Shown here: positions 1,404-38,190 of the stretch, in pieces
Position numbering within the stretch: position 1 is the first letter of the stretch
Layout: every line of letters begins with the position of its first letter
IMG/VR virus record: IMGVR_UViG_3300017991_000007
Span: 1-64,000 of that record
DNA: 64,000 bases
From: a virus
Reading direction: 5' to 3' (one strand)
Position numbers and translations under genes: made by a program
The notes under the pieces: generated by a model
What the model was told of the DNA's origin: nothing
Database searches by the model: none
What the model saw: the letters and a program-made list of their open reading frames with translations, nothing else

Positions 1404-1411
1404 GAGGTAGT

Positions 1412-2350: not shown

Positions 2351-2955
2351 GTATAGCAGTATGCGGTTTGGATATCAGTTTGCGTGGGACAGGTATTGTG
2401 ATTCTGCAAGATGGTCAAATTATGCACCGTGAAACCATCAAGTACAAGCCCGTTGCTAAGGAAATGACCATAACGAAATCCGGCAAGAGCAAGACGTTGA
2501 CGGAGAGACAGAAGATTGAGCGGTTGCTTTATGTTGCTGATCGGGTTGTAGGACTATGCGCTCAATTCGGGGTGCAAGCGATTGCCCGTGAGGATTACGC
2601 CTATTCCAAAAGCTCATCATCTGTTACCGGGCTGGCTGAGGTGACGGGTGTTTTGCGGACTCATATTTACAATCATGGGGGAGCCGTCTTGCATACCCTT
2701 GGAATCACTCAGTCTCGTAAGCTGGTTATGGGGGTGGGTACGGGTAGCAAGGCAAAGGCAAAGAAATGGTTGCAGGATCAAGGGTATGAATTCGATACGG
2801 ATGATGAGTACGATGCTTTCATGGTAGCTTTCACTCTCTATTATATCGTCAACAAGAAAAGCCGTGGGTCACTCAGCGTTTTACAGTTGGAGTACCTTGA
2901 TGAGCTTGAGACTGAGATTCAAAGAAAATTAGGTGTGCAAGCGATTGCATCTTGA
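2347..2955 (+). CDS. RuvC-like Holliday junction resolvase
   Basis: GLDISLRGTG, AREDY and DDEYDA acidic catalytic motifs. Confidence 0.8.
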   Translation: MSIAVCGLDISLRGTGIVILQDGQIMHRETIKYKPVAKEMTITKSGKSKTLTERQKIERLLYVADRVVGLCAQFGVQAIAREDYAYSKSSSSVTGLAEVTGVLRTHIYNHGGAVLHTLGITQSRKLVMGVGTGSKAKAKKWLQDQGYEFDTDDEYDAFMVAFTLYYIVNKKSRGSLSVLQLEYLDELETEIQRKLGVQAIAS

Positions 2956-2980
2956 CAAGTCAAAAAGACCTTGTTATATT
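2936..2980 (+). promoter_or_regulatory. Operator variant plus sigma70 promoter
   Basis: TGCAAGCGATTGCA 2936-2949, TTGACA 2952-2957, TGTTATATT. Confidence 0.65.
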
Positions 2981-3027
2981 ATGGATAGTTTTTTGAAACG
3001 GCAACTTTTAATTGTAAAGGGGTAGTT

Positions 3028-3255
3028 ATGACTTTGAAAATCGAAAAAGTGACCGCACAAGAGCCGTGGGATGCGTTCAAAGAGGAAATGCCTCAGTATT
3101 GTTCGGATGAAAGCGGCGAAAACATTGACGTGGTTTTGGCTGCGTTGCAGGAATACACCGCATGGCTTGAGCGCAAGGGTGTAAAGATGAATCAGTGCGT
3201 GGTATGTGAGCGGAAATTCAAAAACCGTAAAAAGGGGGTAGCACAAGATGACTGA
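3028..3255 (+). CDS. Hypothetical protein
   Basis: RBS present; CVVC motif. Confidence 0.55.
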   Translation: MTLKIEKVTAQEPWDAFKEEMPQYCSDESGENIDVVLAALQEYTAWLERKGVKMNQCVVCERKFKNRKKGVAQDD

Positions 3256-4012
3256 GGAAAAGAAATTTGACGAAAACCCGGAAACCAACCTTACAACTGA
3301 GGATATTGAGGCGTTGCGTCTTGAGGCCAAACGGCTTGCGGACGTGGTAGATACCTCATATTTTGAGCTTGGCGGGGTACTCAATACCATTTCGGAGTCC
3401 GGGTGCTATACCGAGTGGGGGCATGACACTTTCGGGGCATTCGTGGAATCGGATGATTTGGGGTTTGCCCGCCGTAAGGCTTTCTACCTTATGATGATCC
3501 ATGAACAATCTGAAAAGCTTGGGGTAGGAGTTGACGATTTGAGGGGCGTTGGATGGTCTAAGGCTAAAGAGTTCCTACCTATCTGCGAAACCCGGTCTGA
3601 ATTCGACGTGTGGGCTGATAAGGCCAAAAAACTCAGCCTCAAGGATATCACCAAAGAGGTTAAGCTTGCCAAAGGAGCGGACCCGGACGCTGGTAAGGAT
3701 GCTGAGGGCAACAAAATCACAACCAACCCTGAAACCGGTGAAACTTTCCACATTCTGACTTTTTCCCTTGCCGATAAGCAGTACGAAAACGTCTTGCTTG
3801 CTATCCAAAAGGCAAAGGAAATGGGTAAGAGCGAGTCCAAAGAGCATTTGATTGATATGATTGCCTTGGATTTCCTTTCCCACAATGCGACCTTTACCGA
3901 CTTGGCTGAAAAGCTTGCGGATTGGTTCGTACAAGACGGTGATCTGAATGTGCGGATTGCTGAGGCCGTTAATGCCAAGCTACTCAAAGCTGAGGATGAT
4001 GAAACCGAGTAA
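3248..4012 (+). CDS. Conserved phage protein (DUF3102-like helical DNA-binding type)
   Basis: ELGGVL...WGH.TF.AFVE..LGF.RRKA..LM pattern. Confidence 0.55.
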   Translation: MTEEKKFDENPETNLTTEDIEALRLEAKRLADVVDTSYFELGGVLNTISESGCYTEWGHDTFGAFVESDDLGFARRKAFYLMMIHEQSEKLGVGVDDLRGVGWSKAKEFLPICETRSEFDVWADKAKKLSLKDITKEVKLAKGADPDAGKDAEGNKITTNPETGETFHILTFSLADKQYENVLLAIQKAKEMGKSESKEHLIDMIALDFLSHNATFTDLAEKLADWFVQDGDLNVRIAEAVNAKLLKAEDDETE

Positions 4013-4098
4013 AGGTTTGTACTTGATATAGGGGCTTGCGAAAACTCGTAAGCCCTTGTATTATTATAAAAGTACATTTTTTGCTTTGGAGGTCTGCT

Positions 4099-5160
4099 AT
4101 GGCTAAGGGACGTTCTACCGGCGGCGGGGCTGCGGCGGGCGGTGCCGCACCTGAATTACCGGAGCGCACGGTACAAGAATTAGAGAAAGCGTGGGATCAA
4201 TTTCAAGGTCAAGTGGATAACGAGCTTAACTCTTTTGTGCCTGTCATTGAGGCATGGAATCTTGATTCAGCCCGTAAAGCCGCTATTCGGAATCCCATTG
4301 ACGTTACCGATATGAGCGTTGCTGATTCACGCCGGTTGCAGCGTTTCACTAAAACTGATAACCATGACGATGCCATGCGGATGCTTGCCCGTTTGGGCGG
4401 TGTTTCGGACGTTAATACCAATGGTATCAGTATCAATTTCAAGTATGGTGATCCAAATACATTGGTGGTATCGCAAATCGGTAATGGACGTAATATCCAA
4501 TATGACGTGAAATTCAAGGGGGGTCAGCCCTCAATCACTTATCATATGTTTGTGCCAAGACCGGGTGACTCAAACTCAGTTGCCCTTATGGGTACCCGTC
4601 TTACCTCTCTTGCCAATGACTTTGGTATCAAGAGGATCAATATTCCCTCAGCCGCAGGGTCCGGGGGTGGATTGGCGGGCGGTCCAAGGAAAGAAACTGG
4701 TTCTTACACCGGATACAGGCAGTGGTTGGGCGTTGGTGCCATGCCGAAAGGGTGGGGTACTCCCCGTGAACCCGGCGGTAGTTGGCGAAGTGCCGCTACC
4801 TCAGCTATGCGGAATGGCACGTTTGTCCGTTATGGAAACGAAGTTTATAAAGTGCGCCCGGAGGCAGTAAGGCAGCTTTTGGGTAGTGAGAGAAACCCCA
4901 AGTTCTTTTCGCCGCAACAGGTTGCACAAAATCCTATTCTTTTCGGGATTTGGTCGCAGTATGGTAGAGGCGGTCCAGCAACGGTCTTTCTTGGAGGGGC
5001 CAAAACGCAGGACGCTATCAGGAATTATACGAAACTCACAATGGCTCGTAAGATGCCGCAATTTCAGAATTTGGGGTATGGCAGACCGCATCCCCGTGAT
5101 TTACAGATGCCCACTCGTACCGAGTTGAGGCGGGTAGCACCCGATTTACCGAGAGGCTAA
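4099..5160 (+). CDS. MAKG-leader protein with possible GNAT-like domain
   Basis: GGAGG RBS before ATG 4099; begins MAKGRSTGGGAAAGG; A..FGIKRI...AA...TGY..W..VG pattern. Confidence 0.7.
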   Translation: MAKGRSTGGGAAAGGAAPELPERTVQELEKAWDQFQGQVDNELNSFVPVIEAWNLDSARKAAIRNPIDVTDMSVADSRRLQRFTKTDNHDDAMRMLARLGGVSDVNTNGISINFKYGDPNTLVVSQIGNGRNIQYDVKFKGGQPSITYHMFVPRPGDSNSVALMGTRLTSLANDFGIKRINIPSAAGSGGGLAGGPRKETGSYTGYRQWLGVGAMPKGWGTPREPGGSWRSAATSAMRNGTFVRYGNEVYKVRPEAVRQLLGSERNPKFFSPQQVAQNPILFGIWSQYGRGGPATVFLGGAKTQDAIRNYTKLTMARKMPQFQNLGYGRPHPRDLQMPTRTELRRVAPDLPRG

Positions 5161-5172
5161 AGGAGAAAGAAA

Positions 5173-5406
5173 ATGGCAAAGCCCAAAGACGGTAGCGTAA
5201 GGACCGTATCAGGCATGAAACCAGTGAGAGTCCCTAAGCAGGGCAAGAGCAACGCAATGGATTTTGATTTTGATGCCGGTGTTGGAGCCGCAGTCAACGC
5301 TACAAAGCCCAAAATGAGCAAGAAACTGAGGGAGCAAGCAGCGAAAATGGGTAAGACCTCGCAGCGCATCATGCGTATGAATGAGAGGCTTGGAAAGAAA
5401 AAGTAA
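5173..5406 (+). CDS. Small basic protein
   Basis: AGGAG RBS; Lys/Arg-rich, 77 aa. Confidence 0.7.
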   Translation: MAKPKDGSVRTVSGMKPVRVPKQGKSNAMDFDFDAGVGAAVNATKPKMSKKLREQAAKMGKTSQRIMRMNERLGKKK

Positions 5407-5409
5407 TGT

Positions 5410-6582
5410 ATGGGTTTTGAAATCAATCCCAAAAGAGAGGCCAATTACCGGCATACTCTAACTTCCCGTGATTATGAATATATGAAAAACTGTAAGGTCT
5501 GCCCCGTGGTGGACCTTTGCGGTGGTTGGTCCGTTTGGAATGATGCCCGTTGGTGTGTCGGACCCGGCCCGTGGTGCGTTGGTGGGGAACATCCTGACTA
5601 CCCGCACGGTTGCAGGGTGATTTGTTCCCGCTCATCCGAGAAAATTGAGGATGCTACTTACGCTTTAGGACCGAGCAACTATGAGTCCAATCTTGAGTGT
5701 GATCCAGAGAATCGCAAGCACTGTTGGGACGTAGAGGTGGTTCCTGACTTGGGTATCGTAGGAAAGCACAAATGGGAGCCGTGGGATTTTAATTGGCCGG
5801 ACGTTGGTTTTCAGCTTAACGCACATGCCAACTATCAACATCAAGACCTTTATACCATATCCCTCAAGCACCTATTCTATGCGACCCGTCGCACTTGGAG
5901 TCCGCAAAAGGATTTAAGGGAAAGATTCAAAATTCCTGAATCGGCTGCGGTTGCGATTACCAGTACCGTCCATGACGATATCCTTGACGTGCTTGCTCAA
6001 GATATTCCAACGTGGGCTGCGGCGTTGGCTGAGTACGAGGGTGTGACTTTCGTACTTGCTCCCAATTTTTCGGTTTATGACAACTATCCCCGGTTGGACA
6101 ATCTCTTTCATATAAAGCGGAAATTCGTTGCTTTGGAGGCGTTTCAGCGAGAGGGTATGAAGGTTGTACCGGATATCTGCTTTACGACCTCTAGGGATTT
6201 TAAGAATCAGGTTGCTTGGATGCGGGAAAATAAGTGTGAAATGATGCTTATGAACTTTCAGGTTCAAGCCGTTACAACCGATACCCCGCAGTGGAAAGCC
6301 CAAATTAAATCCGCATTAATGGTACAGGATGCCCTTGGTTGGCCGGTACGCATGATTGCCTATGGAGCTACCGGGGGTAAGAGAATGCAGGATATTGCAC
6401 GGCTTTATCCGAATACAACTTTTATTGATTCAAAGGCATATCGACTTGCTGAGTTTCATAAAGATTTGAATTTAGTAGTGGATAAGAGCATTCCGGTTAA
6501 GGATTTGTTTCATATGAATTGCGCCCAAAGTCTTGCCAGAATCCAAGAGGCCAAAGGACAAGCATTGAAATTGGGTGGGTAA
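5410..6582 (+). CDS. DUF4417-like protein with Cys-rich N-terminus
   Basis: APNFSVYDNYP..DN....KR.....FQREG..VVP motif; N-terminal Cys cluster. Confidence 0.7.
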   Translation: MGFEINPKREANYRHTLTSRDYEYMKNCKVCPVVDLCGGWSVWNDARWCVGPGPWCVGGEHPDYPHGCRVICSRSSEKIEDATYALGPSNYESNLECDPENRKHCWDVEVVPDLGIVGKHKWEPWDFNWPDVGFQLNAHANYQHQDLYTISLKHLFYATRRTWSPQKDLRERFKIPESAAVAITSTVHDDILDVLAQDIPTWAAALAEYEGVTFVLAPNFSVYDNYPRLDNLFHIKRKFVALEAFQREGMKVVPDICFTTSRDFKNQVAWMRENKCEMMLMNFQVQAVTTDTPQWKAQIKSALMVQDALGWPVRMIAYGATGGKRMQDIARLYPNTTFIDSKAYRLAEFHKDLNLVVDKSIPVKDLFHMNCAQSLARIQEAKGQALKLGG

Positions 6583-6621
6583 TCTGGTAAAACTGTAAAT
6601 AGGTCAAGCCGGATATGGAGT

Positions 6622-7785
6622 GTGACAATGCCAGAGATTTTAGATAGATGCGTAATGGGTCAAATGGAGAGGGGCGTTTCTCAATCCTCAGCTTTTGCTA
6701 TTTGTACGGCTGCTTTGCAAAGAGCGGGCAAATTGCCCCGTGGTAGGGGTAAGAGTGCCTTTCCTGGGTGGGCAAAAAGGGTTGCTTTACCGGAGCCGGT
6801 TTATTCTGGTATGGAGAATTCTTGGCCCACCCTAACGTCACCGGATCAATCACTTTTGAAAAGTCTTAGGAAAGTCCAGTTGACTGATAGAGAGGGTATC
6901 TTGGGGTCTGCCTTTCTGCATTCCAAAGTCATTGCGCTCAATCCCGAAATGTTGGAGAAAGCGGGCGGTCAACCCCTCTGGTACGGTGCTGTTGCTATCC
7001 ATGAAGCACAACACGCTCTTTACGGCTTTGGGGAGCATGAAGCTACACGGGCAGAACAAAGGTTCCTTGGAAAGTGCTTTGGAGAGTCCAAGATGGATTT
7101 CGATAGACCGGGCATGTTCCTTTCTTGCCGTGCAAGTACGGTTGCTCAAGCCCAAAGGATGAAAGACGTACACGTTAGGCATCGTCGCAATGATTATCAG
7201 TTCCTTGTTTCCTGCGGATATACCCCACGGGTTGCCCGTAAGATCATTGAGGGCGGTAAGAGGGCTTATAAGGCCCGTTTAGCGGCTGCAATGCCTATTC
7301 GATTGATTGCTGCTAAAGACGCTAAGGACTATTTCGAGTTGGATGATACCTATCTACATGCAGTTGTGGATAAGGAGTTTGCCGCCTCTTTGGATGAGTT
7401 CGTTGTGGAAAAAGTTTTTCCGGGCTTTGATATTTATGCCGGTAAGAGCGGTATGAAAGAGCCTGAGAGATTTGGTGGTTTTCGCAGCGTTATGGAGGGG
7501 TATATTCGTCAAGCGGTTGGACGGGGAGTTGGGGTTAGTGAGCGTGGACCTCTTGGAATCGTACCTGTTTTGCGCCGTCATAATTGGGATATTGATGCGT
7601 TGCCGGATGAGTGGCAGCAAAAGAGGGCAGACGCTTTGGCAGAACTTACCGAAAGCCTGAAAACCGAGGGGCTTTACAATGATGAGGGTGATCCTACCGA
7701 GCCTCATTTACTCTGCATTTTGAACGGTTGGACACCGGTACCACATTTGGTATTCTCAGACGTAACCACGTCAATTTCTGGTTGA
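6622..7785 (+). CDS. Hypothetical protein with HExxH zincin-like motif
   Basis: AIHEAQH...E..A; N-terminal SAFAICTA motif. Confidence 0.6.
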   Translation: MTMPEILDRCVMGQMERGVSQSSAFAICTAALQRAGKLPRGRGKSAFPGWAKRVALPEPVYSGMENSWPTLTSPDQSLLKSLRKVQLTDREGILGSAFLHSKVIALNPEMLEKAGGQPLWYGAVAIHEAQHALYGFGEHEATRAEQRFLGKCFGESKMDFDRPGMFLSCRASTVAQAQRMKDVHVRHRRNDYQFLVSCGYTPRVARKIIEGGKRAYKARLAAAMPIRLIAAKDAKDYFELDDTYLHAVVDKEFAASLDEFVVEKVFPGFDIYAGKSGMKEPERFGGFRSVMEGYIRQAVGRGVGVSERGPLGIVPVLRRHNWDIDALPDEWQQKRADALAELTESLKTEGLYNDEGDPTEPHLLCILNGWTPVPHLVFSDVTTSISG

Positions 7786-7850
7786 TCCATTCAAACATTC
7801 TTGCTTAGTCCTTTCAGCTTTGTTATAGTCAGGGGTGAAAAGGAGGCCGT

Positions 7851-8819
7851 ATGAGCAAAATCGACAAGTCCAAAATTGGGGGCTTGAAAGTCAAAGACCC
7901 TAAACGAGCCGCACCTGAGACAGTGGAGGAAAAGGATACCTCTGAGGATACGTCTTGGCTTGATGAGGGTTTCATTCCGGTAGAGGATGGTGTTGGTGAT
8001 TCGGAAATGGCGAATGTACCGGGCAATTATATAGATATTCCCGTTGATGACCTCATTCCGAATTCGTGGAATCCGAATCAAATGAATGATAAGACGTTTG
8101 ATATGCTGGTTCGTCGGATGCGGGAAGTTGGACCACTCAGACCTATTAACGTCATTGCGCTCAAAGATCAACCCGGAAAGTACATGATCATTGACGGGGA
8201 GCATCGTTGGAAAGCCGCAAAAGCCCTTGATTGGCCGTCTGTCTCTGCTCTGGTAATGGAGGGAACGCAGTTTGAGCAAGAGGATGCTCAAAAGTTCCTA
8301 ACCATGCAGCTTAATCAAATAGCTGGTAAGACAAGTCCTGAGAAATTCCTGAAACTCTACAACGAAATGGTAGCGAAGTACGGGGATAAAGCCCTGAAAG
8401 ACCTTATGGGGTTTACCGATTCTACTAAATGGAGGGTTTTGACGAAAGGGATTGCGGACGGCTTACCGGGGGAAATGAAAAAGAAATTCAAAGAGAAAAT
8501 GGAGGGGGCAAACCCGGATGAATTAGGAAATATCCTGCAAGAAATCATGGGGATGTACGGCAATGATATGCGGTATAACTTTATGGTTTTCACTTTCGAG
8601 GATAAAGAGCATGTGTGGATACGCATGAACAAAGATACGCATCAATTGGTCAAGGATTTGGCAGATACTTGTAGGGCTGTTGGTCTGGATATCAACATTC
8701 CTCTCATTGATGCCCTTGACTTTGCGTTGACTCAGTTTACGCCCGCAGATGACGGTTTGGAGTATTCCAATGAGCCAAGTGAGAAAGAGCAAGCTACAAT
8801 TCAAGAGGGCGGGGGATGA
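7851..8819 (+). CDS. ParB/Srx N-terminal domain protein
   Basis: PNSWNPN, PINV, IIDGEHRWKAA. Confidence 0.85.
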   Translation: MSKIDKSKIGGLKVKDPKRAAPETVEEKDTSEDTSWLDEGFIPVEDGVGDSEMANVPGNYIDIPVDDLIPNSWNPNQMNDKTFDMLVRRMREVGPLRPINVIALKDQPGKYMIIDGEHRWKAAKALDWPSVSALVMEGTQFEQEDAQKFLTMQLNQIAGKTSPEKFLKLYNEMVAKYGDKALKDLMGFTDSTKWRVLTKGIADGLPGEMKKKFKEKMEGANPDELGNILQEIMGMYGNDMRYNFMVFTFEDKEHVWIRMNKDTHQLVKDLADTCRAVGLDINIPLIDALDFALTQFTPADDGLEYSNEPSEKEQATIQEGGG

Positions 8820-9633
8820 TCTTAGAGCCTTAGATATTTACCCGGAAATTTACCGCCGGATAATGTCAGGGGAAGCGTCATACTCCGTTGCCAAGTGGTT
8901 AAAGTCCTTGGGGCATTTTGCCGAAATTAAAGAGGAATCTTTGCGTAAGAAGATTGACCGGGCAATTCCGAGTATTCAAAGAGAGGTACCACCCCAAGTC
9001 CAAGCAACTTATCTCCGTAAGAACGAAAACGAAACTGTAGAGCCGGAAATAGTTGAAAAACTTGATGAATCCGCTGAGGATTGTGTTGAAAAACTGCTTG
9101 AGTCGAAAGAAAAGCCGGGGGAAGTTGTCAAGGCTGAGGGGGATGAGGCTACTGAGGTGCAATCGGTTGCACCGGATGTAGTGGATTGTGAGCTTGTGCA
9201 AGACGATTTGCCGCCTAAACCGGTCCCGCCGCCGGTACCCCGGCCTCAGTTAAAAGAGGTTGCACAACTTGAGAAAGCCGCTGATATGCAATGGAGTAGG
9301 ATCAAGATGCTGCATGAAAACGAGAAAAAGATTCAGCATTTGTTCCCGCAGGGTAGGCAGGAATTCTCTGAGTACCGTGCCATGCTGCATACTCTTATCG
9401 ACAAGAAACGTGATCTTGGTATTGCCGGGTATGGACGCAGACAACCCAACATTACTCAGAACAATACCATCATTCAGGGTGACGTAAAGCAAGTTACCGA
9501 GCAAACCATGAATGTCATTGGTGATCCGAAAGCCCGCAGAAAAGTTTTGGATGTTCTCAGGCTTTTTAAGGTCCAAGAGGATGATGAGGATCAAAAACGG
9601 CTTGGTTCTAACGATGTAGCGGCTGAGGCATGA
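8749..9633 (+). CDS. Putative terminase small subunit (start uncertain)
   Basis: Overlaps the TerL start; helical, with an N-terminal HTH-like segment. Confidence 0.5.
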   Translation: MTVWSIPMSQVRKSKLQFKRAGDDLRALDIYPEIYRRIMSGEASYSVAKWLKSLGHFAEIKEESLRKKIDRAIPSIQREVPPQVQATYLRKNENETVEPEIVEKLDESAEDCVEKLLESKEKPGEVVKAEGDEATEVQSVAPDVVDCELVQDDLPPKPVPPPVPRPQLKEVAQLEKAADMQWSRIKMLHENEKKIQHLFPQGRQEFSEYRAMLHTLIDKKRDLGIAGYGRRQPNITQNNTIIQGDVKQVTEQTMNVIGDPKARRKVLDVLRLFKVQEDDEDQKRLGSNDVAAEA

Positions 9634-11459
9634 CGGAATTAAATCAAGATGAACAACGGCTACTTACTTCCCTTTCCCCGGAGGAACAGGACTTAGTTTT
9701 ACGGGTGTTGGAGGGGGATGAGGAAATACTTTCAGCCCTCTATCAAGAGGAATATGAGGAAGTACCAGTAAGCCCGCATAAGTTTTTTACCGACCCGTAC
9801 TATTTGGGGCAGACCGGAGCCGATTTATACCCACAAATCTTGAGTGACTTGGTTGACGTTTTCAGTACGGATTGTGTGGAAATTGTGCTTGGTGGTAGTA
9901 TCGGGTGGGGCAAATCCACGTTTACAGAGTTTGCAATTCTGCGGGTTTTGTATGAGGTTGCTTGCCTGAGAAATCCACAACGCTCTTTTGGTCTTATGGA
10001 GGGGTCCAGTATTGTCCTTATCAACCTTTCCGTTACCCACGCTCAAGCAAAGAAAGCCATTTTTACGGGTTTGCTTGCCAAGGTAAGGCAAAGCCCTTTT
10101 TTCAAAGAGAAATTCCCCTACGACCCGTCTGTTACCTCTGAGTTGCGCTTTCCAAAGAACATTACTATTTTTCCGGGTGCATCAACTGATAACTCTATCT
10201 TGGGGCTAAATGTCATAGGAGGTGCGGTTGACGAATCAAACTTTATGCCGGTAAGGGAGAAAGCCAAGATGCCGGGTATGAGGGGCGCAACCGTTGGTGT
10301 GTACGACAAGGCTGATTCTCTCTACAATGCTATGCTGAGGCGTATGAAATCCCGTTTTATGAAGCGGGGGAAGCTGCCCGGAAAGCTCTTTACCCTTTCC
10401 TCAGCCCAATACCCAAACGATTTTATTGAGCGTAAGACACGTCAAGCCTTGCATGATGACCGTATCTTTGTTCGTAACTACTCCCTTTGGGAAGTCAAGC
10501 CGCCGGGTGAGTATTCGGATGAGACTTTCAAGGTAGAGGTTGGCACGGATTTACAGGGATCACGGATACTCACCGGCAAAGAGCCGCCCAATACGATTGT
10601 CGGTAAGGTCATTGACGTTCCCATAGATTTTATAAAGGATTTTGAAAACGATATTGAGGGGTCCATTCGGGATATTGCCGGTATCTCTACTTTGACCGTT
10701 GACCAATTTATCAAGAATTTCAGAAAAGTAGTGGATTGCATCAATAAGAAAAGGCACCATGTTTTCACGGGGGAAAGCACAACTCTTGAGGATAATCATA
10801 AGTTTTATCGTCGGACCTATCTGAAACCAAATCCAGTTAAACCCAAGACTCGTAAGCCGGTCCTAATCCATAATCCAGAGGCCGTCCGGGTAGCGCACAT
10901 TGACCCTTCTGTATCCGGTGATGCGACGGGTATTGCGGTTGGTCATATCGCTGATATGGTCAAAGTGTCCAGAAAGCAGCCGGACGGTAGAAAAACTGAG
11001 GAATATGCACCTCTCATATTTTATGATTTGTTGCTTCAAATACGCCCGCCTTTGCATCGGGAAATTCAGTTTGACCGTGTTCGTGACGTTCTTTATGAGT
11101 TGATTAAGGATGGTATGAAAATCCAGATAGTTACGATGGACTCTTATCAGTCAGCCGAGCCTTTACAGCAACTTAGGCGTAAGGGATTGATAGCTGATTT
11201 GTTGTCAGTTGACCGGACAACCGACCCTTACGATATCCTCAAGGCCGCATTCTACGAAAACCGGGTGGATATGTACGAGCATAAGATTGCCATGCAAGAG
11301 CTTAGGCAGTTGGAGCATGACCGGCAAAAGAACAAGATTGATCACCCCGAAAGAGGCTCAAAGGACATTGCGGACGCTATGGCGGGGGTGGCATTCACTC
11401 TCACAACTTACGCATCCAGACTCTATAAACCCACTGTTGCCGTCCGAACATTCGGATAA
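9630..11459 (+). CDS. terL: Terminase large subunit
   Basis: Walker A GGSIGWGKS, Walker B AVDE, nuclease motifs HIDPS..GD and KIDHP..GSKDIADA. Confidence 0.92.
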   Translation: MTELNQDEQRLLTSLSPEEQDLVLRVLEGDEEILSALYQEEYEEVPVSPHKFFTDPYYLGQTGADLYPQILSDLVDVFSTDCVEIVLGGSIGWGKSTFTEFAILRVLYEVACLRNPQRSFGLMEGSSIVLINLSVTHAQAKKAIFTGLLAKVRQSPFFKEKFPYDPSVTSELRFPKNITIFPGASTDNSILGLNVIGGAVDESNFMPVREKAKMPGMRGATVGVYDKADSLYNAMLRRMKSRFMKRGKLPGKLFTLSSAQYPNDFIERKTRQALHDDRIFVRNYSLWEVKPPGEYSDETFKVEVGTDLQGSRILTGKEPPNTIVGKVIDVPIDFIKDFENDIEGSIRDIAGISTLTVDQFIKNFRKVVDCINKKRHHVFTGESTTLEDNHKFYRRTYLKPNPVKPKTRKPVLIHNPEAVRVAHIDPSVSGDATGIAVGHIADMVKVSRKQPDGRKTEEYAPLIFYDLLLQIRPPLHREIQFDRVRDVLYELIKDGMKIQIVTMDSYQSAEPLQQLRRKGLIADLLSVDRTTDPYDILKAAFYENRVDMYEHKIAMQELRQLEHDRQKNKIDHPERGSKDIADAMAGVAFTLTTYASRLYKPTVAVRTFG

Positions 11460-11555
11460 CACAAGATGTAGTAGAGCATGTATAAAAAACGTCATTTATT
11501 CTTGACAAGCGAGAAATGGCGTGTTATGTTTTAAGCAGAAAGGAGTGGTATATTT

Positions 11556-11981
11556 ATGAGCGAGAATGAAAAGCCAAAACGCAAAAGGTTGCCGTCCCAT
11601 ATCCGGGAACAGCTTATTAGCGAGCTTGGTACTGCCACGGATCAAGCGTTGGCTGATAAGTATTCAAAGCTTGTGGGTTTCACCATCGAAAGGCATACCG
11701 TATTCTATCTGCGAAATAGCCGGGGAATAGCTGCGTTTGCTCCCCGTCCATATACCCCACCCGCTTTCAAAGGTCGGTTTGAGGATGCGTATCCAGAGGT
11801 CAAAGAGCTTTTGGGCAGAGTACCTTTGCTGCATATCGCAAGGCGATACAATGTAAGCCGGTCATGCGTTAGAGCCGCCGCTGAGAGGCTTGGATTGCCC
11901 ACACGGGCGCAAGACTTTGAAAAGATTTTTGAGGATGCCGGGTCAAACCCGTTGCCAGATGAGGCAAGACAAGCCGGATAA
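11556..11981 (+). CDS. HTH-like DNA-binding protein
   Basis: Two HTH-like repeats (LGT.TD..LA; LLG......IARRYNVSRS.V); own TTGACA promoter. Confidence 0.55.
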   Translation: MSENEKPKRKRLPSHIREQLISELGTATDQALADKYSKLVGFTIERHTVFYLRNSRGIAAFAPRPYTPPAFKGRFEDAYPEVKELLGRVPLLHIARRYNVSRSCVRAAAERLGLPTRAQDFEKIFEDAGSNPLPDEARQAG

Positions 11982-12020
11982 ATTTGATACGTTGCGAGTC
12001 ATAGCACCCCACCTTATGAT

Positions 12021-12048
12021 TGCCCCCTTAACCGGGGGCATATTTTTA
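12021..12048 (+). terminator. Rho-independent terminator
   Basis: TGCCCCC-TTAACC-GGGGGCA then TATTTTT. Confidence 0.6.
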
Positions 12049-12112
12049 CTTGACAATTCAAAAGAGTGTTGTTATATTATGTGCGTGAAACATATTTTTG
12101 CGGGGGTGCGAA

Positions 12113-12463
12113 ATGACGCATGAAAGTGAGATTAATTGCTCCATAAGCAAGATTGAACACCGGGTATGGGGTGGTTCTTTGATTGCCACGGTGACGGTCC
12201 TGCCAACGGATGAGGATGATCCCGATGAGGTATCTTTTGGGGTTGATGTTGCTGAGTTCGTCAAACATCTTGAAGTTGAATCCAATCCATACACTGAGAT
12301 TCTTATCGACAAAACGGAGCCGAAAAAACGGTTTGTTCTGCGTACCGTTGATTTTGTGGGGGGTCTGGAATCAGCCGGGGTCTTAGCTGAGTTGGAAAAC
12401 GCCGGGGAAAGCGTAAATACGGATGCGCCGGACGGCATTGACGATGATGATATCCCATTTTGA
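12113..12463 (+). CDS. Hypothetical acidic protein
   Basis: ORF after promoter; ends DDDDIPF (SSB-like tail). Confidence 0.55.
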   Translation: MTHESEINCSISKIEHRVWGGSLIATVTVLPTDEDDPDEVSFGVDVAEFVKHLEVESNPYTEILIDKTEPKKRFVLRTVDFVGGLESAGVLAELENAGESVNTDAPDGIDDDDIPF

Positions 12464-12834
12464 GTAGGCAGTACAACATAAGCGGGCAAGACCGCAGCAT
12501 TCTCTTTCACCTGAAAAGACGTGGGGGAGAATGTGAACTGTTTACAATACTTTACTACGATCTTGATATGCCAATGGGACGGGCAAGGCAAAGCGTAATG
12601 CCTCTCGCTGCCCGGTTGCGGGAACGCAGATTAGTTGCGTTTCCTTCAAAGCAGCCCTTGGTTTGTGCTATAACTAGGGTTGGAGAAAAGGTCTTATCCA
12701 AAGACCAAAAATCCATTACCGTTAAGGAGCAAAATGATGATATTAAGAAGCGAGTCGGAACTAATGCAGGGGCTAAAAGCCGCCGAATTACCCGTTACCG
12801 ACCTACGACACCGCCTACCCCGTCACGAAAGTAG
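12460..12834 (+). CDS. Hypothetical protein (winged-helix-like)
   Basis: ORF coupled to the upstream gene. Confidence 0.35.
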   Translation: MSRQYNISGQDRSILFHLKRRGGECELFTILYYDLDMPMGRARQSVMPLAARLRERRLVAFPSKQPLVCAITRVGEKVLSKDQKSITVKEQNDDIKKRVGTNAGAKSRRITRYRPTTPPTPSRK

Positions 12835-13531
12835 AGCTTGGGGAAAGCGTGACCCGGCGGGCATTCAGGGAGTCGTCTATCACCATGCAGCAAGTACCGG
12901 AACCTTTGAGGCTGTTGCTAACTACCATATAAAACCCAACCACATTTCCAGCCGGGGTCTGCCCTCCATTTCGTACACAATGGGTATCGACACGGATGGT
13001 ACCATTGCGTTATTCAATGATTTCGTTTGGCGCACTTATTCTCAGGGATATTCCAAGCGTCCGGGGGATGAAAACGCTGAGTTTATGGCGGTCCTTATCC
13101 GGGGCAACCTTTGGAGTCCGCACAATCCCAACGGGCATGATCCAACGGAAAAGCAACTGTTTTCCGCAGCCGCACTTTACGATTGGCTGCATAGGAATTG
13201 GGGTTTGCATCCCTCAATGCTTTTCGGTCATTATCATTTTGGCAAGGCTTTGTGTCCGGGGTCCGCAGTCAAGAGATTGATTGAGACTATTCGGGGTGAC
13301 GTGGTAGAGCCTACTCCTACCATGCTGCCAGAAAAGCAAATTAACTTGGTTGCCGATAGGCAAATTAAGCTCAAGACTTTGGGGCATTATTCCGGCAATA
13401 TTGACGGTATTTGGGGTCCGCAGTCGGACTCTGCCCTAAGAGCATTTCAAGCTGAAAGCGGTTTGTATGTTGATGGTATTTGGGGCCGGAATACTGAGGC
13501 TGCTATGAAAGCTGCCCTAGCTGCAAAATAA
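12734..13531 (+). CDS. Endolysin, N-acetylmuramoyl-L-alanine amidase with peptidoglycan-binding domain
   Basis: VYHHAA, GH.....CPG Zn ligands; C-terminal DGIWGP...ALRAFQ...GL.VDGIWG; AGGAG RBS. Confidence 0.88.
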   Translation: MMILRSESELMQGLKAAELPVTDLRHRLPRHESRAWGKRDPAGIQGVVYHHAASTGTFEAVANYHIKPNHISSRGLPSISYTMGIDTDGTIALFNDFVWRTYSQGYSKRPGDENAEFMAVLIRGNLWSPHNPNGHDPTEKQLFSAAALYDWLHRNWGLHPSMLFGHYHFGKALCPGSAVKRLIETIRGDVVEPTPTMLPEKQINLVADRQIKLKTLGHYSGNIDGIWGPQSDSALRAFQAESGLYVDGIWGRNTEAAMKAALAAK

Positions 13532-13532
13532 A

Positions 13533-13557
13533 AAATGCCCGGTAGGAGTACCGGGTC
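13533..13557 (-). terminator. Terminator hairpin
   Basis: CCCGGTA/TACCGGG stem next to an A tract on the + strand. Confidence 0.6.
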
Positions 13558-13579
13558 TTGGTAGGATTCATTAGTGGGA

Positions 13580-13741
13580 TTAGGACACTCTTTGGGAACT
13601 ACCCTCTTGCATTTGCCCCTCAAAGAGTGCTTGTAGGTCCGCTAATTCCTGCCTTTGGCGGTCATTCAGGGGTTGACCGTTGTTATTGGAAAGTTCCTGA
13701 ATCATTATCTCAGTCTCTTGGATCATTTCAGAGTGTGTCAT
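13580..13741 (-). CDS. 53-aa hypothetical protein (below ORF-track cutoff)
   Basis: AAGGAG RBS; MTHSEMIQETE...QRVS. Confidence 0.55.
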   Translation of the reverse strand: MTHSEMIQETEIMIQELSNNNGQPLNDRQRQELADLQALFEGQMQEGSSQRVS

Positions 13742-13753
13742 TTTCAGACTCCT

Positions 13754-14230
13754 TTAGGCGATTGAGCCGGTAGTGTTGATATCGTTAATATGCCGGTATC
13801 CCGCTCCGATATTGACGCACACGGGGCCAAACCCGGTAGCAATAGACTCAGGGACCGTCAACCGCCGTCCGCAGCGTCCGCAACGCCCTTCATGCCAGAT
13901 TTCGACACTCTCAGGGAGATTGCCGGAAAGCAACCGGGTGAAAAACCAGTTGAAAACCCTTGCGCTTTGGGCATCCCGGCTGATTCGGGAACGCCGCCCG
14001 TGAAAGTACCGGGCATTCTCGGTACCCGCATCAAAGATGGTACCCAAAAAGGTGTAGTCACTGGAATTTTCCGGGCCGGTCAAAACGCTTACGAAGTGAG
14101 GCGCATCCTCATTGGGTTGCCGGACTCGGAAAGTGAGGCGATTGCCGGTATCGGTATTGAGTAGGGTAAAGTAAGCGTTTCCTGCCAAGACGAATTGCCG
14201 GATATTTTGCTCTATGATATGCCTTTCCAT
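13754..14230 (-). CDS. DUF6011-like zinc-ribbon protein
   Basis: CGRCGRRLTVPESIATGFGPVC. Confidence 0.75.
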   Translation of the reverse strand: MERHIIEQNIRQFVLAGNAYFTLLNTDTGNRLTFRVRQPNEDAPHFVSVLTGPENSSDYTFLGTIFDAGTENARYFHGRRSRISRDAQSARVFNWFFTRLLSGNLPESVEIWHEGRCGRCGRRLTVPESIATGFGPVCVNIGAGYRHINDINTTGSIA

Positions 14231-14279
14231 TTCGTTTCCCCTTTCGGTTTGTTGTGTCGTTTCATTAATCATCATGGTT

Positions 14280-14385
14280 GTACTATACCAAGGCTAAAAA
14301 GACTTGTCAAGTAAAAAATGCAAGCGATTGCACTTTTTTTAACAATTTTCTCTTGACGTGTTAAGTAGGTTTGCGCTATTAAATA
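14280..14385. promoter_or_regulatory. Operator with divergent promoters
   Basis: TGTCAA 14305-10 (minus-strand -35), TGCAAGCGATTGCA 14319-32, TTGACG on + strand. Confidence 0.75.
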
Positions 14386-14419
14386 TTTGTTATGGTTATT
14401 TGGTTACGAGAATTTTGAT

Positions 14420-14638
14420 ATGAGGTACCGGTGTAATGATCCCGTCACCGTTGCCGTATCCTATTGTCCTATGTGTCAGAAATCCGTAAATATTTTGTAC
14501 GTTGAGGCTCGTAAGGACCGTGTTCTTTGCCCGCATTGTTTTGGAGTTTTCACTTACACACAGCCGAAAAGAGTTATAGTAAACCGTGGCATGATTGCGT
14601 CTGATGGTATGGACGGGGAGTTTCTGTATGAGGATTGA
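14420..14638 (+). CDS. Zn-ribbon protein
   Basis: CPMC...CPHC. Confidence 0.55.
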   Translation: MRYRCNDPVTVAVSYCPMCQKSVNILYVEARKDRVLCPHCFGVFTYTQPKRVIVNRGMIASDGMDGEFLYED

Positions 14639-14945
14639 TGTGTTTAGAGCGACGGGTGACGGGTACGCACAGGACGTTACTGAGGGGGTTGAGGTTGCCA
14701 AGATTGTAGCCGCCTTGCTGAGTAATAGTCCGGGTGTGGTAGAGATTGATTTTGCGGGGGTCATAGCGGTAGAGCGGGTTTTTCTCTTTGGGCTATTCAA
14801 TTCGCTTTATCTACAGTTCTCGGTTGATGAGCTTCATACTCGGATTCGATTTAAGAACTTGGGAGATTTCGAGTTCGTAGTAAGACGGTGTGCGGTGTTG
14901 TCTTTGGAGAGTGTGCTGAAAATTCAATCATCCTCAGCAACGTAA
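14628..14945 (+). CDS. STAS-like (DUF4325-like) protein
   Basis: EG..V...VEIDFAGV.....FL..LF..L...F. Confidence 0.6.
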   Translation: MRIDVFRATGDGYAQDVTEGVEVAKIVAALLSNSPGVVEIDFAGVIAVERVFLFGLFNSLYLQFSVDELHTRIRFKNLGDFEFVVRRCAVLSLESVLKIQSSSAT

Positions 14946-15377
14946 TCAGTCTTTTTCAAGAGCGTACCGGGCTTTGCTGATTCTATCCAATAGATCATTT
15001 ACCCGTACAAAGGCGGTATCTAAGGTTTTTTCCGCAGCCTCTTGTTTTGAGTGTTTGGCCCGTCTATTTGCCATTAACACGAATAGATGTTCTCTAAAGG
15101 TTACTTTGGTTTCGGTGATTTTTTGGAGTTCTTTGCACCGGTCAAGTGTTTGATCCACTCGTATAAAATCGGCACCTATTTTGCCCCAATATTGTTGTTC
15201 TTGGAGGTCGGTACCTATCTCACTAGCCTCAATGCAGGAAAGTGCATTCTCTAATGTTTCGAGTCTATCACTTGCTTGGTGTAGAAGTTGCTCCAAGGCT
15301 TTCATAACTGATATACGAATTTGTGTATCCATTTTAATCATCCTCAGCAACGTAAAGGCCGTATTCAATAATAGCAT
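14946..15377 (-). CDS. Hypothetical coiled-coil protein (start uncertain)
   Basis: Helical ORF. Confidence 0.45.
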   Translation of the reverse strand: MLLLNTAFTLLRMIKMDTQIRISVMKALEQLLHQASDRLETLENALSCIEASEIGTDLQEQQYWGKIGADFIRVDQTLDRCKELQKITETKVTFREHLFVLMANRRAKHSKQEAAEKTLDTAFVRVNDLLDRISKARYALEKD

Positions 15378-15502
15378 CTAACAAGTCCGGGTGTTCGTCA
15401 AGTTTGTATCCGGTTGCCCTCTCAAATTCAAAGAAGATATCGCAGAAATGATTGGAGCCTTGATCTTTTGCTTTTGCCTCTCTATCGTCTGCTTGGCTCA
15501 TT

Positions 15503-15835
15503 TTACGCATCCCCCTCAGTTACGAGTACCCACCCCGGCCCGCTGGTAGGATTCTCAGGAATAGCCTCATAAGCGGCCCTTTGCATGGCCTCAGTCAAAT
15601 CCCGCCGGTATTGGGCATTGCGCCTATTTGCCGCATCCATAACGTAATCCAGAGGCAAGAAAGTACCATCCCCATATTCATAGTCCGGTAGTATGGATTC
15701 ATTTTCCATAAAGGTACCGTCCGGGGCAGTAATTAGAAGCTGCCAACCGTGATCATGGTACAACTCAAAATGAAAACCGCTATCACCGGTTGCCTCAAAT
15801 CCGCTACAAATCTCAGTCCATTCGATTGCTGCCAT
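15503..15835 (-). CDS. Hypothetical protein behind operator promoter
   Basis: Conserved leader and AGGGG RBS. Confidence 0.65.
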   Translation of the reverse strand: MAAIEWTEICSGFEATGDSGFHFELYHDHGWQLLITAPDGTFMENESILPDYEYGDGTFLPLDYVMDAANRRNAQYRRDLTEAMQRAAYEAIPENPTSGPGWVLVTEGDA

Positions 15836-15877
15836 TTCGTTGCCCCTTTGGTTTGTGCCATTAAGTACCATACGCAC

Positions 15878-15985
15878 ACTATAATAAGGCTAAAAAGTCT
15901 TGTCAAGTAAAAAATGCAATCACTTGCACTTTTTTTCATTAGTAACGATTTCTCTTGACAAGCCTAAAAGTGAGTGTTAGATTGA
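15878..15985. promoter_or_regulatory. Operator with divergent promoters
   Basis: TGTCAA 15901-06, TGCAATCACTTGCA 15915-28, TTGACA 15955-60. Confidence 0.75.
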
Positions 15986-16012
15986 TGGAAACTTTGACAA
16001 GCGGGGGTAGCA

Positions 16013-16925: not shown

Positions 16926-17639
16926 GTGGGATTTTTCAGCAAGAAAAAGAAAGCCAAGCTAAAGGCTATTGAGGAATGCGTAACCGGAATCAAGATATGG
17001 ACGGATGGTTCATGTTTTCCAAATCCAGACGGAGAGGGCGGTTGGTCTTTTGTGATCCGTGCGGATGATTTATGCGTTGTGAGGTCCGGGTATATTCCAG
17101 AACCATGCACCAATAACCGGGCTGAGTTGCTTGGGGCTATTGCGGCGTTGAAACAACTGGACAAGAATACCCTGCTTTACAAACCCGTGACGCTATACAC
17201 CGATTCACAGTACGTCCAAAAAGGCATTACTCAGTGGATAAGTGGGTGGATAAGCCGGGGTTGGCGCAATGTTCAAGGTCAACCGACTCCGAATAAAAAG
17301 CTTTGGCAGTTGCTTTTGGATGCCAAGTCCGGCATTAAGGTCCAATTCAAGCACGTCCGGGGTCACACCGGGGAGCCTATGAATGAGCTTTGCGATTGGT
17401 TAGCCAATGCTGCCAGAGAAAATAAGGTGGGAGTGGTTTACCAAGGCTGTTTCGCTGATTTAGATGACTCTTTGCGGGATGTTATGGATAAAGAGGGTGA
17501 CGGTACCATGACTACCATTGCGCCGGATATCTCTGAGGATGATGTAATGGGAAAGCGGTCAAACCGGCCAAAACAAAAACCGGTTGATTGGAAAAAAGCC
17601 AATAACCCGTTTGGTGATAAAGACGATGATCCGTTTTAG
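16926..17639 (+). CDS. rnhA: Ribonuclease HI
   Basis: WTDGSC..NP, TNNRAEL, YTDSQYV, HVRGHTG..NE.CD.LA. Confidence 0.92.
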   Translation: MGFFSKKKKAKLKAIEECVTGIKIWTDGSCFPNPDGEGGWSFVIRADDLCVVRSGYIPEPCTNNRAELLGAIAALKQLDKNTLLYKPVTLYTDSQYVQKGITQWISGWISRGWRNVQGQPTPNKKLWQLLLDAKSGIKVQFKHVRGHTGEPMNELCDWLANAARENKVGVVYQGCFADLDDSLRDVMDKEGDGTMTTIAPDISEDDVMGKRSNRPKQKPVDWKKANNPFGDKDDDPF

Positions 17640-18932: not shown

Positions 18933-19197
18933 TTTCTGGAAAGCTGTCCGTAACATGGCTGAGGCTTGCAAAACCGGTTTTGAGTTTGGCTGCGATGGTT
19001 CGCCTTGTAAGCGGGAACAGATGTTCCATGATCACGGTGAATGTGAGGGATGCCCCGGTGATTCTACCTTTAGTCCGGTAGCGGTAGAGGGCGTTACTAA
19101 GGCTGAGTTGGAGGAAATACGCATGATTGCCATTGCTAAGTTTACGGATGCGTCCGATACTGCGGAGATAAAGCTGAATGGCAAGGAAACCTCTTAA
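18919..19197 (+). CDS. Cys-containing hypothetical protein
   Basis: Apparent paralog of the previous ORF. Confidence 0.55.
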   Translation: MKATDFWKAVRNMAEACKTGFEFGCDGSPCKREQMFHDHGECEGCPGDSTFSPVAVEGVTKAELEEIRMIAIAKFTDASDTAEIKLNGKETS

Positions 19198-19681
19198 ATC
19201 AGAACATAGCGTAAGGGATTTTAGGCAAGCTTCACCCGCTGCATTGTTACCCCTAATCCCGTACCTGAAACCTGAATGGACGGTGTGGGATTGTGCGGCG
19301 GGTCAAGCTCGCTTTGTTAGGGCTTTGCTGAATCACGGCTTTACAGCTTTTGGCACGGACGTACTTACCGGCCAAGACTTTCTCACTTGGTTGCCCCAAG
19401 ATGATTGGGATTGCATCGTATCGGAGCCGCCTCTTTCCCGTTTGACGGGCTTTTTCCAGCAAGCATACGCCTTGGGTAAGCCTTTTGCCTTTTTGTGCGA
19501 TACCGGAGCGTTTGGTGGGCTGAAACGGCGTTTTCTATTCCGTTCTTATGGTGTAGAATTAATAATTCTGCCCGGTCAACTCGAAAATCTTGGAGAGGGC
19601 GCAAAGAGAGTGGAAATGACGTGGTTTACGCACGGTCTGAATATGGGTAAGGAGTTGACCTTTGCAGAACATTTGGTTTGA
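19178..19681 (+). CDS. Small phage adenine methyltransferase-like protein with degenerate motif IV
   Basis: VWDCAAG, GQDFL, IVSEPPLS (in place of NPPF), KPFAFL. Confidence 0.65.
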   Translation: MARKPLKSEHSVRDFRQASPAALLPLIPYLKPEWTVWDCAAGQARFVRALLNHGFTAFGTDVLTGQDFLTWLPQDDWDCIVSEPPLSRLTGFFQQAYALGKPFAFLCDTGAFGGLKRRFLFRSYGVELIILPGQLENLGEGAKRVEMTWFTHGLNMGKELTFAEHLV

Positions 19682-19729
19682 GGTCATATTTTTCTTGACA
19701 AGACCTTTTGACCTTGTTATAGTGTAGCC

Positions 19730-19815
19730 AATTGACGGGTACTTTCCCCGTTGGTTTTTGTGTCGGGTCTAAGGCTCGGTTGTCAAAATGGGTTGACACC
19801 GGGCCTTAACCTTTT
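19730..19815 (+). ncRNA. Putative small RNA (or structured leader) complementary to early-gene leaders
   Basis: TTGACA 19695-17bp-TATAGT promoter; TTTCCCCGTTGGTTTTTGTGTCG; 3' hairpin shared with 42486-42523. Confidence 0.45.
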
Positions 19816-19827
19816 AAGGAGAGTGGC

Positions 19828-20181
19828 ATGACATTTTTTGAATGGCTTTTACGTCCGTTACTTAGGTGGGCTGCGAAAGTGAGAGAGAAAGCGTATGAGG
19901 ATATGCTGCGGGGTTTATCTGAGGCTGAGTTGCAGCAAGTCAAGGAATGGCAGGATACCCGTGAAAAGGTTTTCCTCAAGTACAAGCACGGTGATCTTAA
20001 ATGGCGTGATACTCTTGGTTTGCGCTACTGTGATATGCTGAGTCCGATTGAGCAAAAGCGGTTTTCGACTCTTAATGATGTAGAACTTATATTCCGCAAT
20101 GAGCGGCTTAGACTACAAAGGATGGAAATAGATGGATATTGTCGTACCGGGCAAGAAACCAGTGCAAATGCCCAAGTGTAA
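19828..20181 (+). CDS. Hypothetical protein
   Basis: AGGAG RBS. Confidence 0.55.
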   Translation: MTFFEWLLRPLLRWAAKVREKAYEDMLRGLSEAELQQVKEWQDTREKVFLKYKHGDLKWRDTLGLRYCDMLSPIEQKRFSTLNDVELIFRNERLRLQRMEIDGYCRTGQETSANAQV

Positions 20182-20317: not shown

Positions 20318-20380
20318 ACTTGACAAGTCTCTAATGTGTTGTTAAATTGGTTAGATGAAACGACACGAAAGGAGCTTAAC

Positions 20381-22633: not shown

Positions 22634-22995
22634 GCAAACTACCAAAAGGTACGATAGTTACCAAGACGAAATTTGGGTACAAGCCTTATGTGGAATATCC
22701 GAGTATGGGGAATACTCATATCAATACATTGCAGGATTTGAAAGATTTTCTTGATGAGGTTGCCGCTGAGTATCTTTACAAACCAGCTACCAATGAACTG
22801 ATAAACCAAATCTACAGACGAATCAAAGCCGCCGTACCCGCTACCTTGGGGGTAAGGGTCAACCTGACAAGAGGTGGAAACGTCCGGGTTGAATTTGAGG
22901 GTGCTGAGGAAACCTTTGGTTGCTCCAATGACGATATGAAATACTTTTTCAGTGACCTTTCGTTTGACGTGGCAACCGTGCGGTGTATCCAATAA
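22630..22995 (+). CDS. C-terminal-tag family protein
   Basis: Ends FDVATVRCIQ. Confidence 0.65.
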   Translation: MSKLPKGTIVTKTKFGYKPYVEYPSMGNTHINTLQDLKDFLDEVAAEYLYKPATNELINQIYRRIKAAVPATLGVRVNLTRGGNVRVEFEGAEETFGCSNDDMKYFFSDLSFDVATVRCIQ

Positions 22996-23077
22996 AAAAA
23001 AAATGCCCGGTATGGGTACCGGGGCTTTGGAAGGGAATATGTGAATGGGTTTTTGTAGGCTTTATTCGTTTTTCAAT
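22995..23077 (-). ncRNA. Putative ~80-nt small RNA or empty promoter cassette
   Basis: Operator promoter (23084-23134) followed directly by a terminator at 23005-23024; no ORF between. Confidence 0.45.
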
Positions 23078-23083
23078 GATGCC

Positions 23084-23200
23084 ATTCTAGCAAGGCAGTA
23101 AAGCCTTGTCAAGTAAAAAATGCAATCAATTGCACTTTTTTTCAAAATAGTTTTTAACCCCTTGATTTTAGTTGACAATTCATAAAAGCAGTGTTAAGTT
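23084..23200. promoter_or_regulatory. Operator with divergent promoters
   Basis: TGTCAA 23107-12, TGCAATCAATTGCA 23121-34, TTGACA near 23172. Confidence 0.75.
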
Positions 23201-35731: not shown

Positions 35732-35805
35732 GCGCTTATAGCTCAATGGTAGAGCAAGGGACTCTAAATCCCCGTGCATAGGTTCAAATCCTATTAAGCG
35801 CACCA
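35732..35805 (+). tRNA. tRNA with CUA anticodon (amber suppressor)
   Basis: GCGCTTA/TAAGCGC acceptor stem, GCTC/GAGC D stem, anticodon loop CTCTAAA, ATAGG-TTCAAAT-CCTAT T arm, encoded CCA. Confidence 0.9.
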
Positions 35806-38077: not shown

Positions 38078-38129
38078 TGCATTTCCCCTTTCGGTGTTGG
38101 CTTGTTGTGTCGTTTGATTCATCATGCGT

Positions 38130-38190
38130 AAAGTATAACAAGTCCCTAGAGCGTTGTCAACAAAAAAGTGCAATTAATTGCACTTTTTTA
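38130..38190 (-). promoter_or_regulatory. Operator plus sigma70 promoter
   Basis: TGTCAA 38155-60, TGCAATTAATTGCA 38169-82. Confidence 0.8.

Follow-up and report, generated by a model that had tools for sequence, protein, structure and literature searches.

The locus considered here lies in the initial 64 kb of an IMG/VR virus record of 106,648 bp, and this whole stretch of DNA is referred to as the window. The complete record carries direct terminal repeats, which together with the gene content suggest a virulent lifestyle for this phage. Genes are mostly oriented rightward, and near-consensus promoters of the sigma-70 type, equipped with an extended -10, are numerous in the genome: the window contains 23 matches to the pattern where 3.8 would be expected, and a stricter scan of the genome returned 28 candidates. 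A repeated cassette, in which a bidirectional terminator hairpin with A/T flanks is joined to a consensus promoter, occurs at several positions, and in the version designated class A it is extended by a conserved 5' region. The cassettes at 622-755, 14228-14349 and 38098-38199 share about 80% identity over 105-125 bp, and further ones are found at 15878-15936, 23084-23142, 38522-38579 and 49155-49211. The neighbours of the element starting at 19695 comprise an RNase H gene and a methyltransferase-like ORF (Table 1), the remaining ones being orphan ORFs.

Two further traits of the genome concern its translation. A tRNA with anticodon CUA (amber suppressor), labelled Pyl by ARAGORN, is encoded at 35732-35805 on the plus strand; the late long ORFs read normally in code 11, and wholesale TAG recoding therefore seems unlikely. 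The ribosome-site motif GGGG(G)TAGC, unusually long and conserved, lies upstream of the promoter-proximal gene at many promoters (741-16004 and beyond), with 14 plus-strand copies genome-wide, 11 of them in ribosome-binding position. Judged by eye, its TAGC is unexplained by pairing with the canonical 16S 3' end.

The strong promoter that the original prediction had placed at the head of the element is present with all elements and spacing in place: the -35 hexamer (19695-19700) and the spacing are perfect, the TG of the extended -10 is found at 19715-19716, and the -10 hexamer (19718-19723) agrees with the consensus at five of six positions. The promoter block is identical to the leftward block at 15906 at 35 of 41 positions, and it falls into one subclass with the leftward promoters at 14310 and 15906. 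The leader that follows measures 98 nt, as compared to about 25-55 nt for most other promoter-to-start distances in the genome, and it is highly structured. A fold of 112 nt reached -43.1 kcal/mol (z -4.0), a stability attained by none of 200 shuffles, and is composed of two hairpins separated by an 8-nt linker rich in U and G. The hairpin claimed in the original prediction proved real, folding at 19765-19812 with -27.6 kcal/mol and a z of -5.6 (hairpin 2), and it is preceded by a 5'-terminal one (hairpin 1), in which the C-rich half of a stretch complementary to class-A leaders falls into the loop and the 3' arm. Both hairpins, as well as a related one at 42483-42525, fold better on the plus strand because of their G-U pairs.

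Hairpin 2 is followed by a short run of three to four U and then by purines, the AAGGAG-type ribosome site of the ORF at 19828 beginning 4-5 nt past the stem. No second promoter for this ORF was found between 19695 and its ATG. The alternative named in the original prediction itself, that the region is only the 5' UTR of 19828, thus holds in part, since the region adjoins the ORF and carries its sole promoter. A 57-aa ORF on the minus strand (19626-19799) was discarded, being without a promoter and overlapping both the upstream gene and the promoter at 19695. The idea that the C-rich loop masks the 19828 ribosome site within the same RNA was likewise set aside, the 7-8 or so pairs counted by eye including two G-U and being absent from the minimum-energy fold. 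Among Rfam families, the whole window gave one tRNA only at the gathering threshold, and cmscan of 19650-19900 and 42380-42620 with E values up to 10 returned noise (best 14-18 bits vs. gathering thresholds of 31-105), and membership in any of them was rejected; the model of the C4 antisense RNA (RF01695) matched neither element in sequence or structure.

Table 1. Features at and around the 19695 element and related regions of the window.
Feature	Position	Strand	Remarks
RNase H gene	16926-17639		Neighbour of the 19695 element
Methyltransferase-like ORF	19178-19681		Neighbour of the 19695 element
Strong sigma-70-type promoter	19695-19723	+	TTGACA, 17-nt spacer, TATAGT
Predicted transcription start	A19730	+	7 nt after the -10, expected from spacing
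Hairpin 1	19730-19756	+	5'-terminal 10-bp stem, 7-nt loop, -9.6 kcal/mol
Anti-leader stretch	19743-19765	+	Complements class-A mRNA bases ~+16 to +40, including the internal ribosome-binding site
Hairpin 2	19765-19812	+	20 bp, two 1-nt bulges, two G-U pairs, 6-nt loop
U run (3-4 U), AAGGAGAG ribosome-binding site, ATG	19813-19830	+	
Orphan ORF gp19828	19828-20181	+	117 aa, sole database match is itself
Class-A promoter and 5' region	14231-14310	-	Top predicted target, best colinear match to the inverted element
Class-A promoter and 5' region, SWIM-finger gene	669-751	+	Second predicted target
Class-A promoter and 5' region	38078-38160	-	Third predicted target
Class-A 5' region	698-751	+	
Class-A 5' region	14231-14281	-	
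Class-A 5' region	15836-15877	-	
Class-A 5' region	20349-20380	+	
Class-A 5' region	38078-38131	-	
Class-A 5' region	38474-38521	-	
Partner hairpin	42483-42525	+	Flanked by the stop at 42418 and the promoter at 42540

The arrangement of promoter, hairpins, ribosome site and gene is consistent with a structured 5' leader, or attenuator, of the 19828 operon (19730-19827) that acts in cis, the reading to which we tentatively give the first place, with a confidence falling just short of even. The sole promoter and the closeness of the ribosome site to hairpin 2 argue for it, as do the stability and the strand specificity of the leader fold. Using a promoter that ranks among the strongest in the phage, host RNA polymerase would initiate near A19730, and the RNA would open with a stem-loop and continue into the 20-bp hairpin that ends shortly ahead of the ribosome-binding site. 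The pair of hairpins would most likely shield the 5' end of the message from nucleases. Hairpin 2 and its short U run may in addition halt some of the polymerases, yielding a read-through mRNA and, as a by-product, a leader RNA of about 85 nt. The promoter, the fold, its position and the colinearity described below are observed, and the start site, the stabilisation and the partial termination at 19828 are putative.

Termination features point in the same direction. The terminator scan of the stretch around the locus flagged hairpin 1, with its U/G-rich tail, and not hairpin 2, which has a strong stem but just three to four U in its tail, next to a perfect promoter. A tract of 6-10 T is found in the terminators flagged there and in the terminator-promoter cassettes, and the short U run, unlike these and unlike the 10 U of a genuine promoter-to-terminator unit at 23112-22994, fits a leader that terminates only in part. 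The latter unit (22994-23112, minus strand) stands alone as a leftward element within a rightward region: its strong promoter (23112-23084) is followed by about 84 nt without an ORF and by a terminator hairpin at 23023-23006 that precedes the 10 U. It constitutes a cleaner candidate for a small-RNA gene than the 19695 element, and no convincing target was found for it. A strong hairpin was also observed at 58153-58213 on the plus strand, 3' of the gene at 56833-58146, and its 3' end, its tail and the next ribosome site resemble, by eye, the 3' end of hairpin 2 and the 19828 ribosome site.

The class-A 5' regions show a peculiar organization. In all six class-A cassettes an ATG coincides with the predicted start site, exactly 6 nt after the -10, and the predicted start A19730 occupies the position at which these cassettes have the A of that ATG. 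In five of the six, the ATG at +1 is in frame, and without intervening stop, with an ATG led by a Shine-Dalgarno sequence located 36, 42, 45, 48 and 48 nt downstream; the indels among the 5' regions are all multiples of three, and the proteins encoded downstream are unrelated to each other. Given this uninterrupted reading frame between the two ATGs, class-A mRNAs are probably leaderless, with a shared short translated N-terminal extension and an internal second start. This pattern of six early promoters, ATG at the start site, is maybe a more testable lead than the antisense RNA discussed below.

The original prediction had regarded a 23-mer of the element as close to the reverse complement of the leader of the 14230 gene. 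It was located at 19743-19765, and its reverse complement agrees with the 5' region of that gene in 22 of 25 columns, with two gaps. Of the related leaders that had been listed with it, matches were recovered at 719-733, 38099-38113, about 15840-15845 and about 20360; all are weaker than that to 14230, and the last two are the loosest. The class-A genes with ATG at 752, 14230 and 38077 are accordingly the main predicted targets of the stretch, 20381 and 15835 being weaker ones, and the pairing site probably lies inside the N-terminal extension. When the leader was co-folded with 155 start regions, the three class-A regions ranked first to third, with net gains of -20.2, -19.7 and -16.4 kcal/mol as compared to a mean of -5.5 (sd 3.3) for all 155; hairpin 1 opens in these co-folds and hairpin 2 stays intact, the seed being placed in part in the loop and in part in the single-stranded linker. 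That class-A regions are the top three of 155 predicted partners speaks against the cis leader.

This ranking is instead what would be expected of the antisense RNA proposed originally, about 85 nt long, transcribed from 19695 and either derived from the leader or standing alone, an explanation that we consider somewhat unlikely. Transcripts stopping at hairpin 2 would accumulate, guarded at both ends by hairpins; hairpin 1 would open and 19743-19765 would pair with class-A messages, covering the internal ribosome site, so that class-A translation might be shut off as infection proceeds. The C-rich loop, the U-rich linker and the 3' hairpin follow a layout typical of base-pairing small RNAs, and the genes directly 3' of the 19695 element and of the partner hairpin use a different, AAGGAG-type ribosome site. 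The weak U-tract argues against a terminated RNA of this kind, and since the supposed targets have promoters of the same class as the element, the regulator would be synthesised at the same time as they are and at a comparable level.

The weight of the complementarity depends on how chance is reckoned. With the site held fixed, shuffled 26-mers reached the best observed duplex in 8 of 506 cases and the observed sum of the top four in 1 of 506 (p 0.002-0.016), in favour of an antisense function. Because such a match could have been noticed anywhere, we also performed a genome-wide test, in which all 64 intergenic regions (7.3 kb) were compared to all 155 start regions. Once homologous leader, promoter and terminator repeats were set aside, the two best genuine antisense matches were 19743-19765 (25.6 bits) and the loop at 42498-42510 (24.7 bits). 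Dinucleotide shuffles of the intergenic set contained a match of at least 25.6 bits in 55% of the sets, and two or more matches of at least 24.7 bits in 49% of them, which counts against the antisense explanation. When the two regions were fixed, dinucleotide shuffles gave p values of 0.015 for the region of 19743-19765 and 0.072 for that of 42498-42510, values that favour the antisense explanation, and a joint p of about 0.001 for these regions, the only two intergenic ones in which the hairpin is shared. The antisense matches are thus unusual only if both regions are fixed beforehand, and their genome-wide strength is ordinary. The coincident presence of an anti-ribosome-site sequence in the partner hairpin, at the joint p just given, is nonetheless left unexplained by a purely cis role.

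The origin of the element offers a simple account of its complementarity. The stretch 19736-19835 is colinear with the class-A cassette at 14310 on the opposite strand, first along the leader block and then along the block of spacer and -35, the latter now forming the 5' arm of hairpin 2; between the two blocks the -10 and the initial 30 nt of the leader are missing. The score of the colinear match (40.25) exceeded every one of 200 shuffles (mean 21.4, maximum 36.5). Read in reverse complement, the -35 and spacer of a class-A promoter are similar to this 5' arm, which reached p 0.038 when it alone was compared to inverted promoters. The similarity of the 3' arm and ribosome site to a decayed forward promoter was not significant (118 of 300) and was dismissed. 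The element is therefore best explained, as far as the alignment can tell, as a descendant of an inverted and internally deleted class-A promoter-leader cassette, so that the decayed inverted cassette named in the original prediction as an objection is borne out as far as ancestry is concerned. If so, the complementarity was probably inherited: in the cis leader, the sequence would be built from a wrecked cassette and its match to class-A messages would not have been selected. The colinear inverted cassette and the chance level found genome-wide both argue for the cis leader, and descent from the cassette accounts for the very complementarity on which an antisense function is built. Such an origin is compatible with a possible later use as a regulator. 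A compact phage genome should moreover shed a useless relic, and the anti-leader stretch, having been retained, may be in use, a point against the cis leader.

The same colinearity with an inverted, internally deleted cassette of class A, the recurrence of the ~80% identical cassettes and the chance level of the complementarity could also be taken to mean that the element is an inert relic, i.e., debris of recombination between repeated terminator-promoter-leader cassettes that is transcribed as mere spacer. We judge this to be quite unlikely: hairpin 2 is a near-perfect 20-bp helix with a z of -5.6 and strand-specific G-U pairs, which a promoter decaying at random would neither produce nor preserve, and the leader is longer than usual for this genome.

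The hairpin at 42483-42525 had been invoked in the original prediction as the other member of a family sharing hairpin 2 as a scaffold. An identical 11-base core of the 3' arm and a matching 5' arm were indeed found; the similarity is weak (23.8 bits, E 0.44 vs. the genome), ties with a random match, and the pairing registers deduced from the sequence alignment are one base apart, with unrelated loops. No third copy was detected in the 106.6-kb genome with up to three edits per arm. The contexts differ as well, hairpin 2 following a promoter, the other hairpin following a stop and preceding the next promoter in a terminator-like position. This position fits a terminator of the gene at 41531-42418, and a weak extended -10 promoter was noticed at 42410-42438. 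Over 13 nt, the loop is exactly complementary to the ribosome-site region of the 38655 gene.

More broadly, the loop of 42483-42525 is complementary to ribosome sites of the GGGGGTAGC type in about 18 genes, with pairing energies of -17 to -26 kcal/mol as compared to a mean of -9.6 kcal/mol. This pairing supports the antisense explanation, according to which the loop would act on GGGGGTAGC-type sites as 19743-19765 would on class-A messages; the hairpin homology, weak at an E value of 0.44, tells against it. In its fullest form, two small RNAs with a common scaffold, both born by inverted duplication of target leader cassettes, would shut off the promoter-proximal early genes of the phage itself, the one (19730-19815) directed against the apparently leaderless class-A messages and the other (about 42445-42530) against the GGGGGTAGC-type sites of about 18 genes, a proposal that we regard as plainly unlikely.

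Two related, strand-specific helices in early intergenic regions could alternatively be recognition sites for a protein or for the polymerase. A 20-bp stem belongs to the size class cut by RNase III, and the put sites of HK022 form a promoter-proximal two-hairpin leader, as is the case with hairpin 2. The shared hairpin might thus serve RNase III-type processing (cf. T7 and SP82 early transcripts) or nut/put-like antitermination behind early promoters, and we hold either role, as well as the recognition hairpin in general, to be very improbable. The loops are unrelated and the stems one base apart in register, the similarity is weak, one hairpin lies after a promoter and the other before one, and neither a candidate binding protein nor an Rfam match was found.

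Relatives of the locus were sought at several levels. No relative was recovered by blastn against GenBank phages, by protein-seeded scans of IMG/VR with gp19828, gp19178 and TerL, or by a scan of metagenomes with gp19828, and a search of 5.8 billion proteins with gp19828 returned the query itself only; this lack of relatives counts against an antisense RNA. A DNA-pattern scan for the class-A leader gave no matches, the one for the hairpin gave 42, all unrelated by tblastx, and the one for the terminator-promoter cassette gave 51, which reflect a generic strong promoter and include only distant relatives in replication genes. The best GenBank match of TerL is about 36% identical, and a distant relative of 99.9 kb (57% GC) is without this promoter architecture. 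Of 13 matches to the leader in metagenomes, all but one were due to chance, the exception being a fragment with 99.9% identity to 622-1797. The fragment in question (Ga0180437_10319690, positions 1-1176) stems from a different metagenome, which places the phage in at least two samples and may allow variants within its population to be retrieved.

For the present, the locus is best described as a structured leader whose gene and phage are both orphans. Were the antisense explanation true, a virulent-type phage would time its early genes by RNA-RNA pairing, by means of a regulator born from an inverted copy of the leader of its target. There is also a methodological gain, in that a striking complementarity turned out to lie within genome-wide chance and to have a simple evolutionary explanation.

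Several known systems share traits with the locus. Stem-loops at the 5' end stabilise messages such as those with the E. coli ompA leader, B. subtilis aprE and the early RNA of phage SP82. The 19695 leader resembles them in having a hairpin at the 5' end of the message and a second structure beside the ribosome site, and differs from them in the weakness of hairpin 1 (-9.6 kcal/mol), stabilisation being putative. In Firmicutes, small RNAs with C-rich loops (RsaE/RoxS, RNAIII-type UCCC motifs) use unpaired C-rich motifs to pair with G-rich ribosome-binding sites. The RsaE/RoxS type is host-encoded, conserved and experimentally shown, whereas the 19695 element is a single orphan locus known from its sequence. 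The origin suggested for two scaffold-sharing RNAs could be likened, by analogy, to the early shut-off by RegA/RegB in T4 and to the birth of plant microRNAs by inverted duplication.

As for the cassettes, the promoter-early stem-loops (PeSL) of T4-type phages, repeated units of a terminator hairpin and an early promoter described by Arbiol et al. in 2010, can reportedly shuffle genes and leave rearranged fragments behind. The cassettes of the present phage differ in also possessing a conserved 5' region of about 45 nt with an ATG at the start site. A PeSL-like recombination is suggested here by the colinear inverted match alone.

The c4 RNA of P1/P7 is an RNA of an operon leader that pairs in trans through exposed segments and blocks translation at a ribosome-binding region located elsewhere (PMC12197685). 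Should the antisense explanation apply, the 19695 RNA might share this logic, being made from a leader, acting in trans and blocking ribosome sites. However, c4 is released by processing, addresses one mRNA on its own transcript and serves the immunity of temperate phages (PMC12197685), while several early mRNAs would be the targets here, in a phage of suggested virulent lifestyle.

The closest parallel to a leader acting in cis is offered by virulent Pseudomonas phages, in which terminators in 5' UTRs giving a short RNA and a read-through mRNA have been found to be common by ONT-cappable-seq (PMC10914365). RNA ends were measured in those phages, whereas the 19695 unit is predicted from its sequence, has a short U-tract and is of a possibly unrelated host and phage lineage. 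The order is nevertheless the same, with a promoter, a short hairpin-ended RNA in the 5' UTR and then the gene, and this published precedent is a further reason to prefer a structured leader of the 19828 operon acting in cis (PMC10914365).
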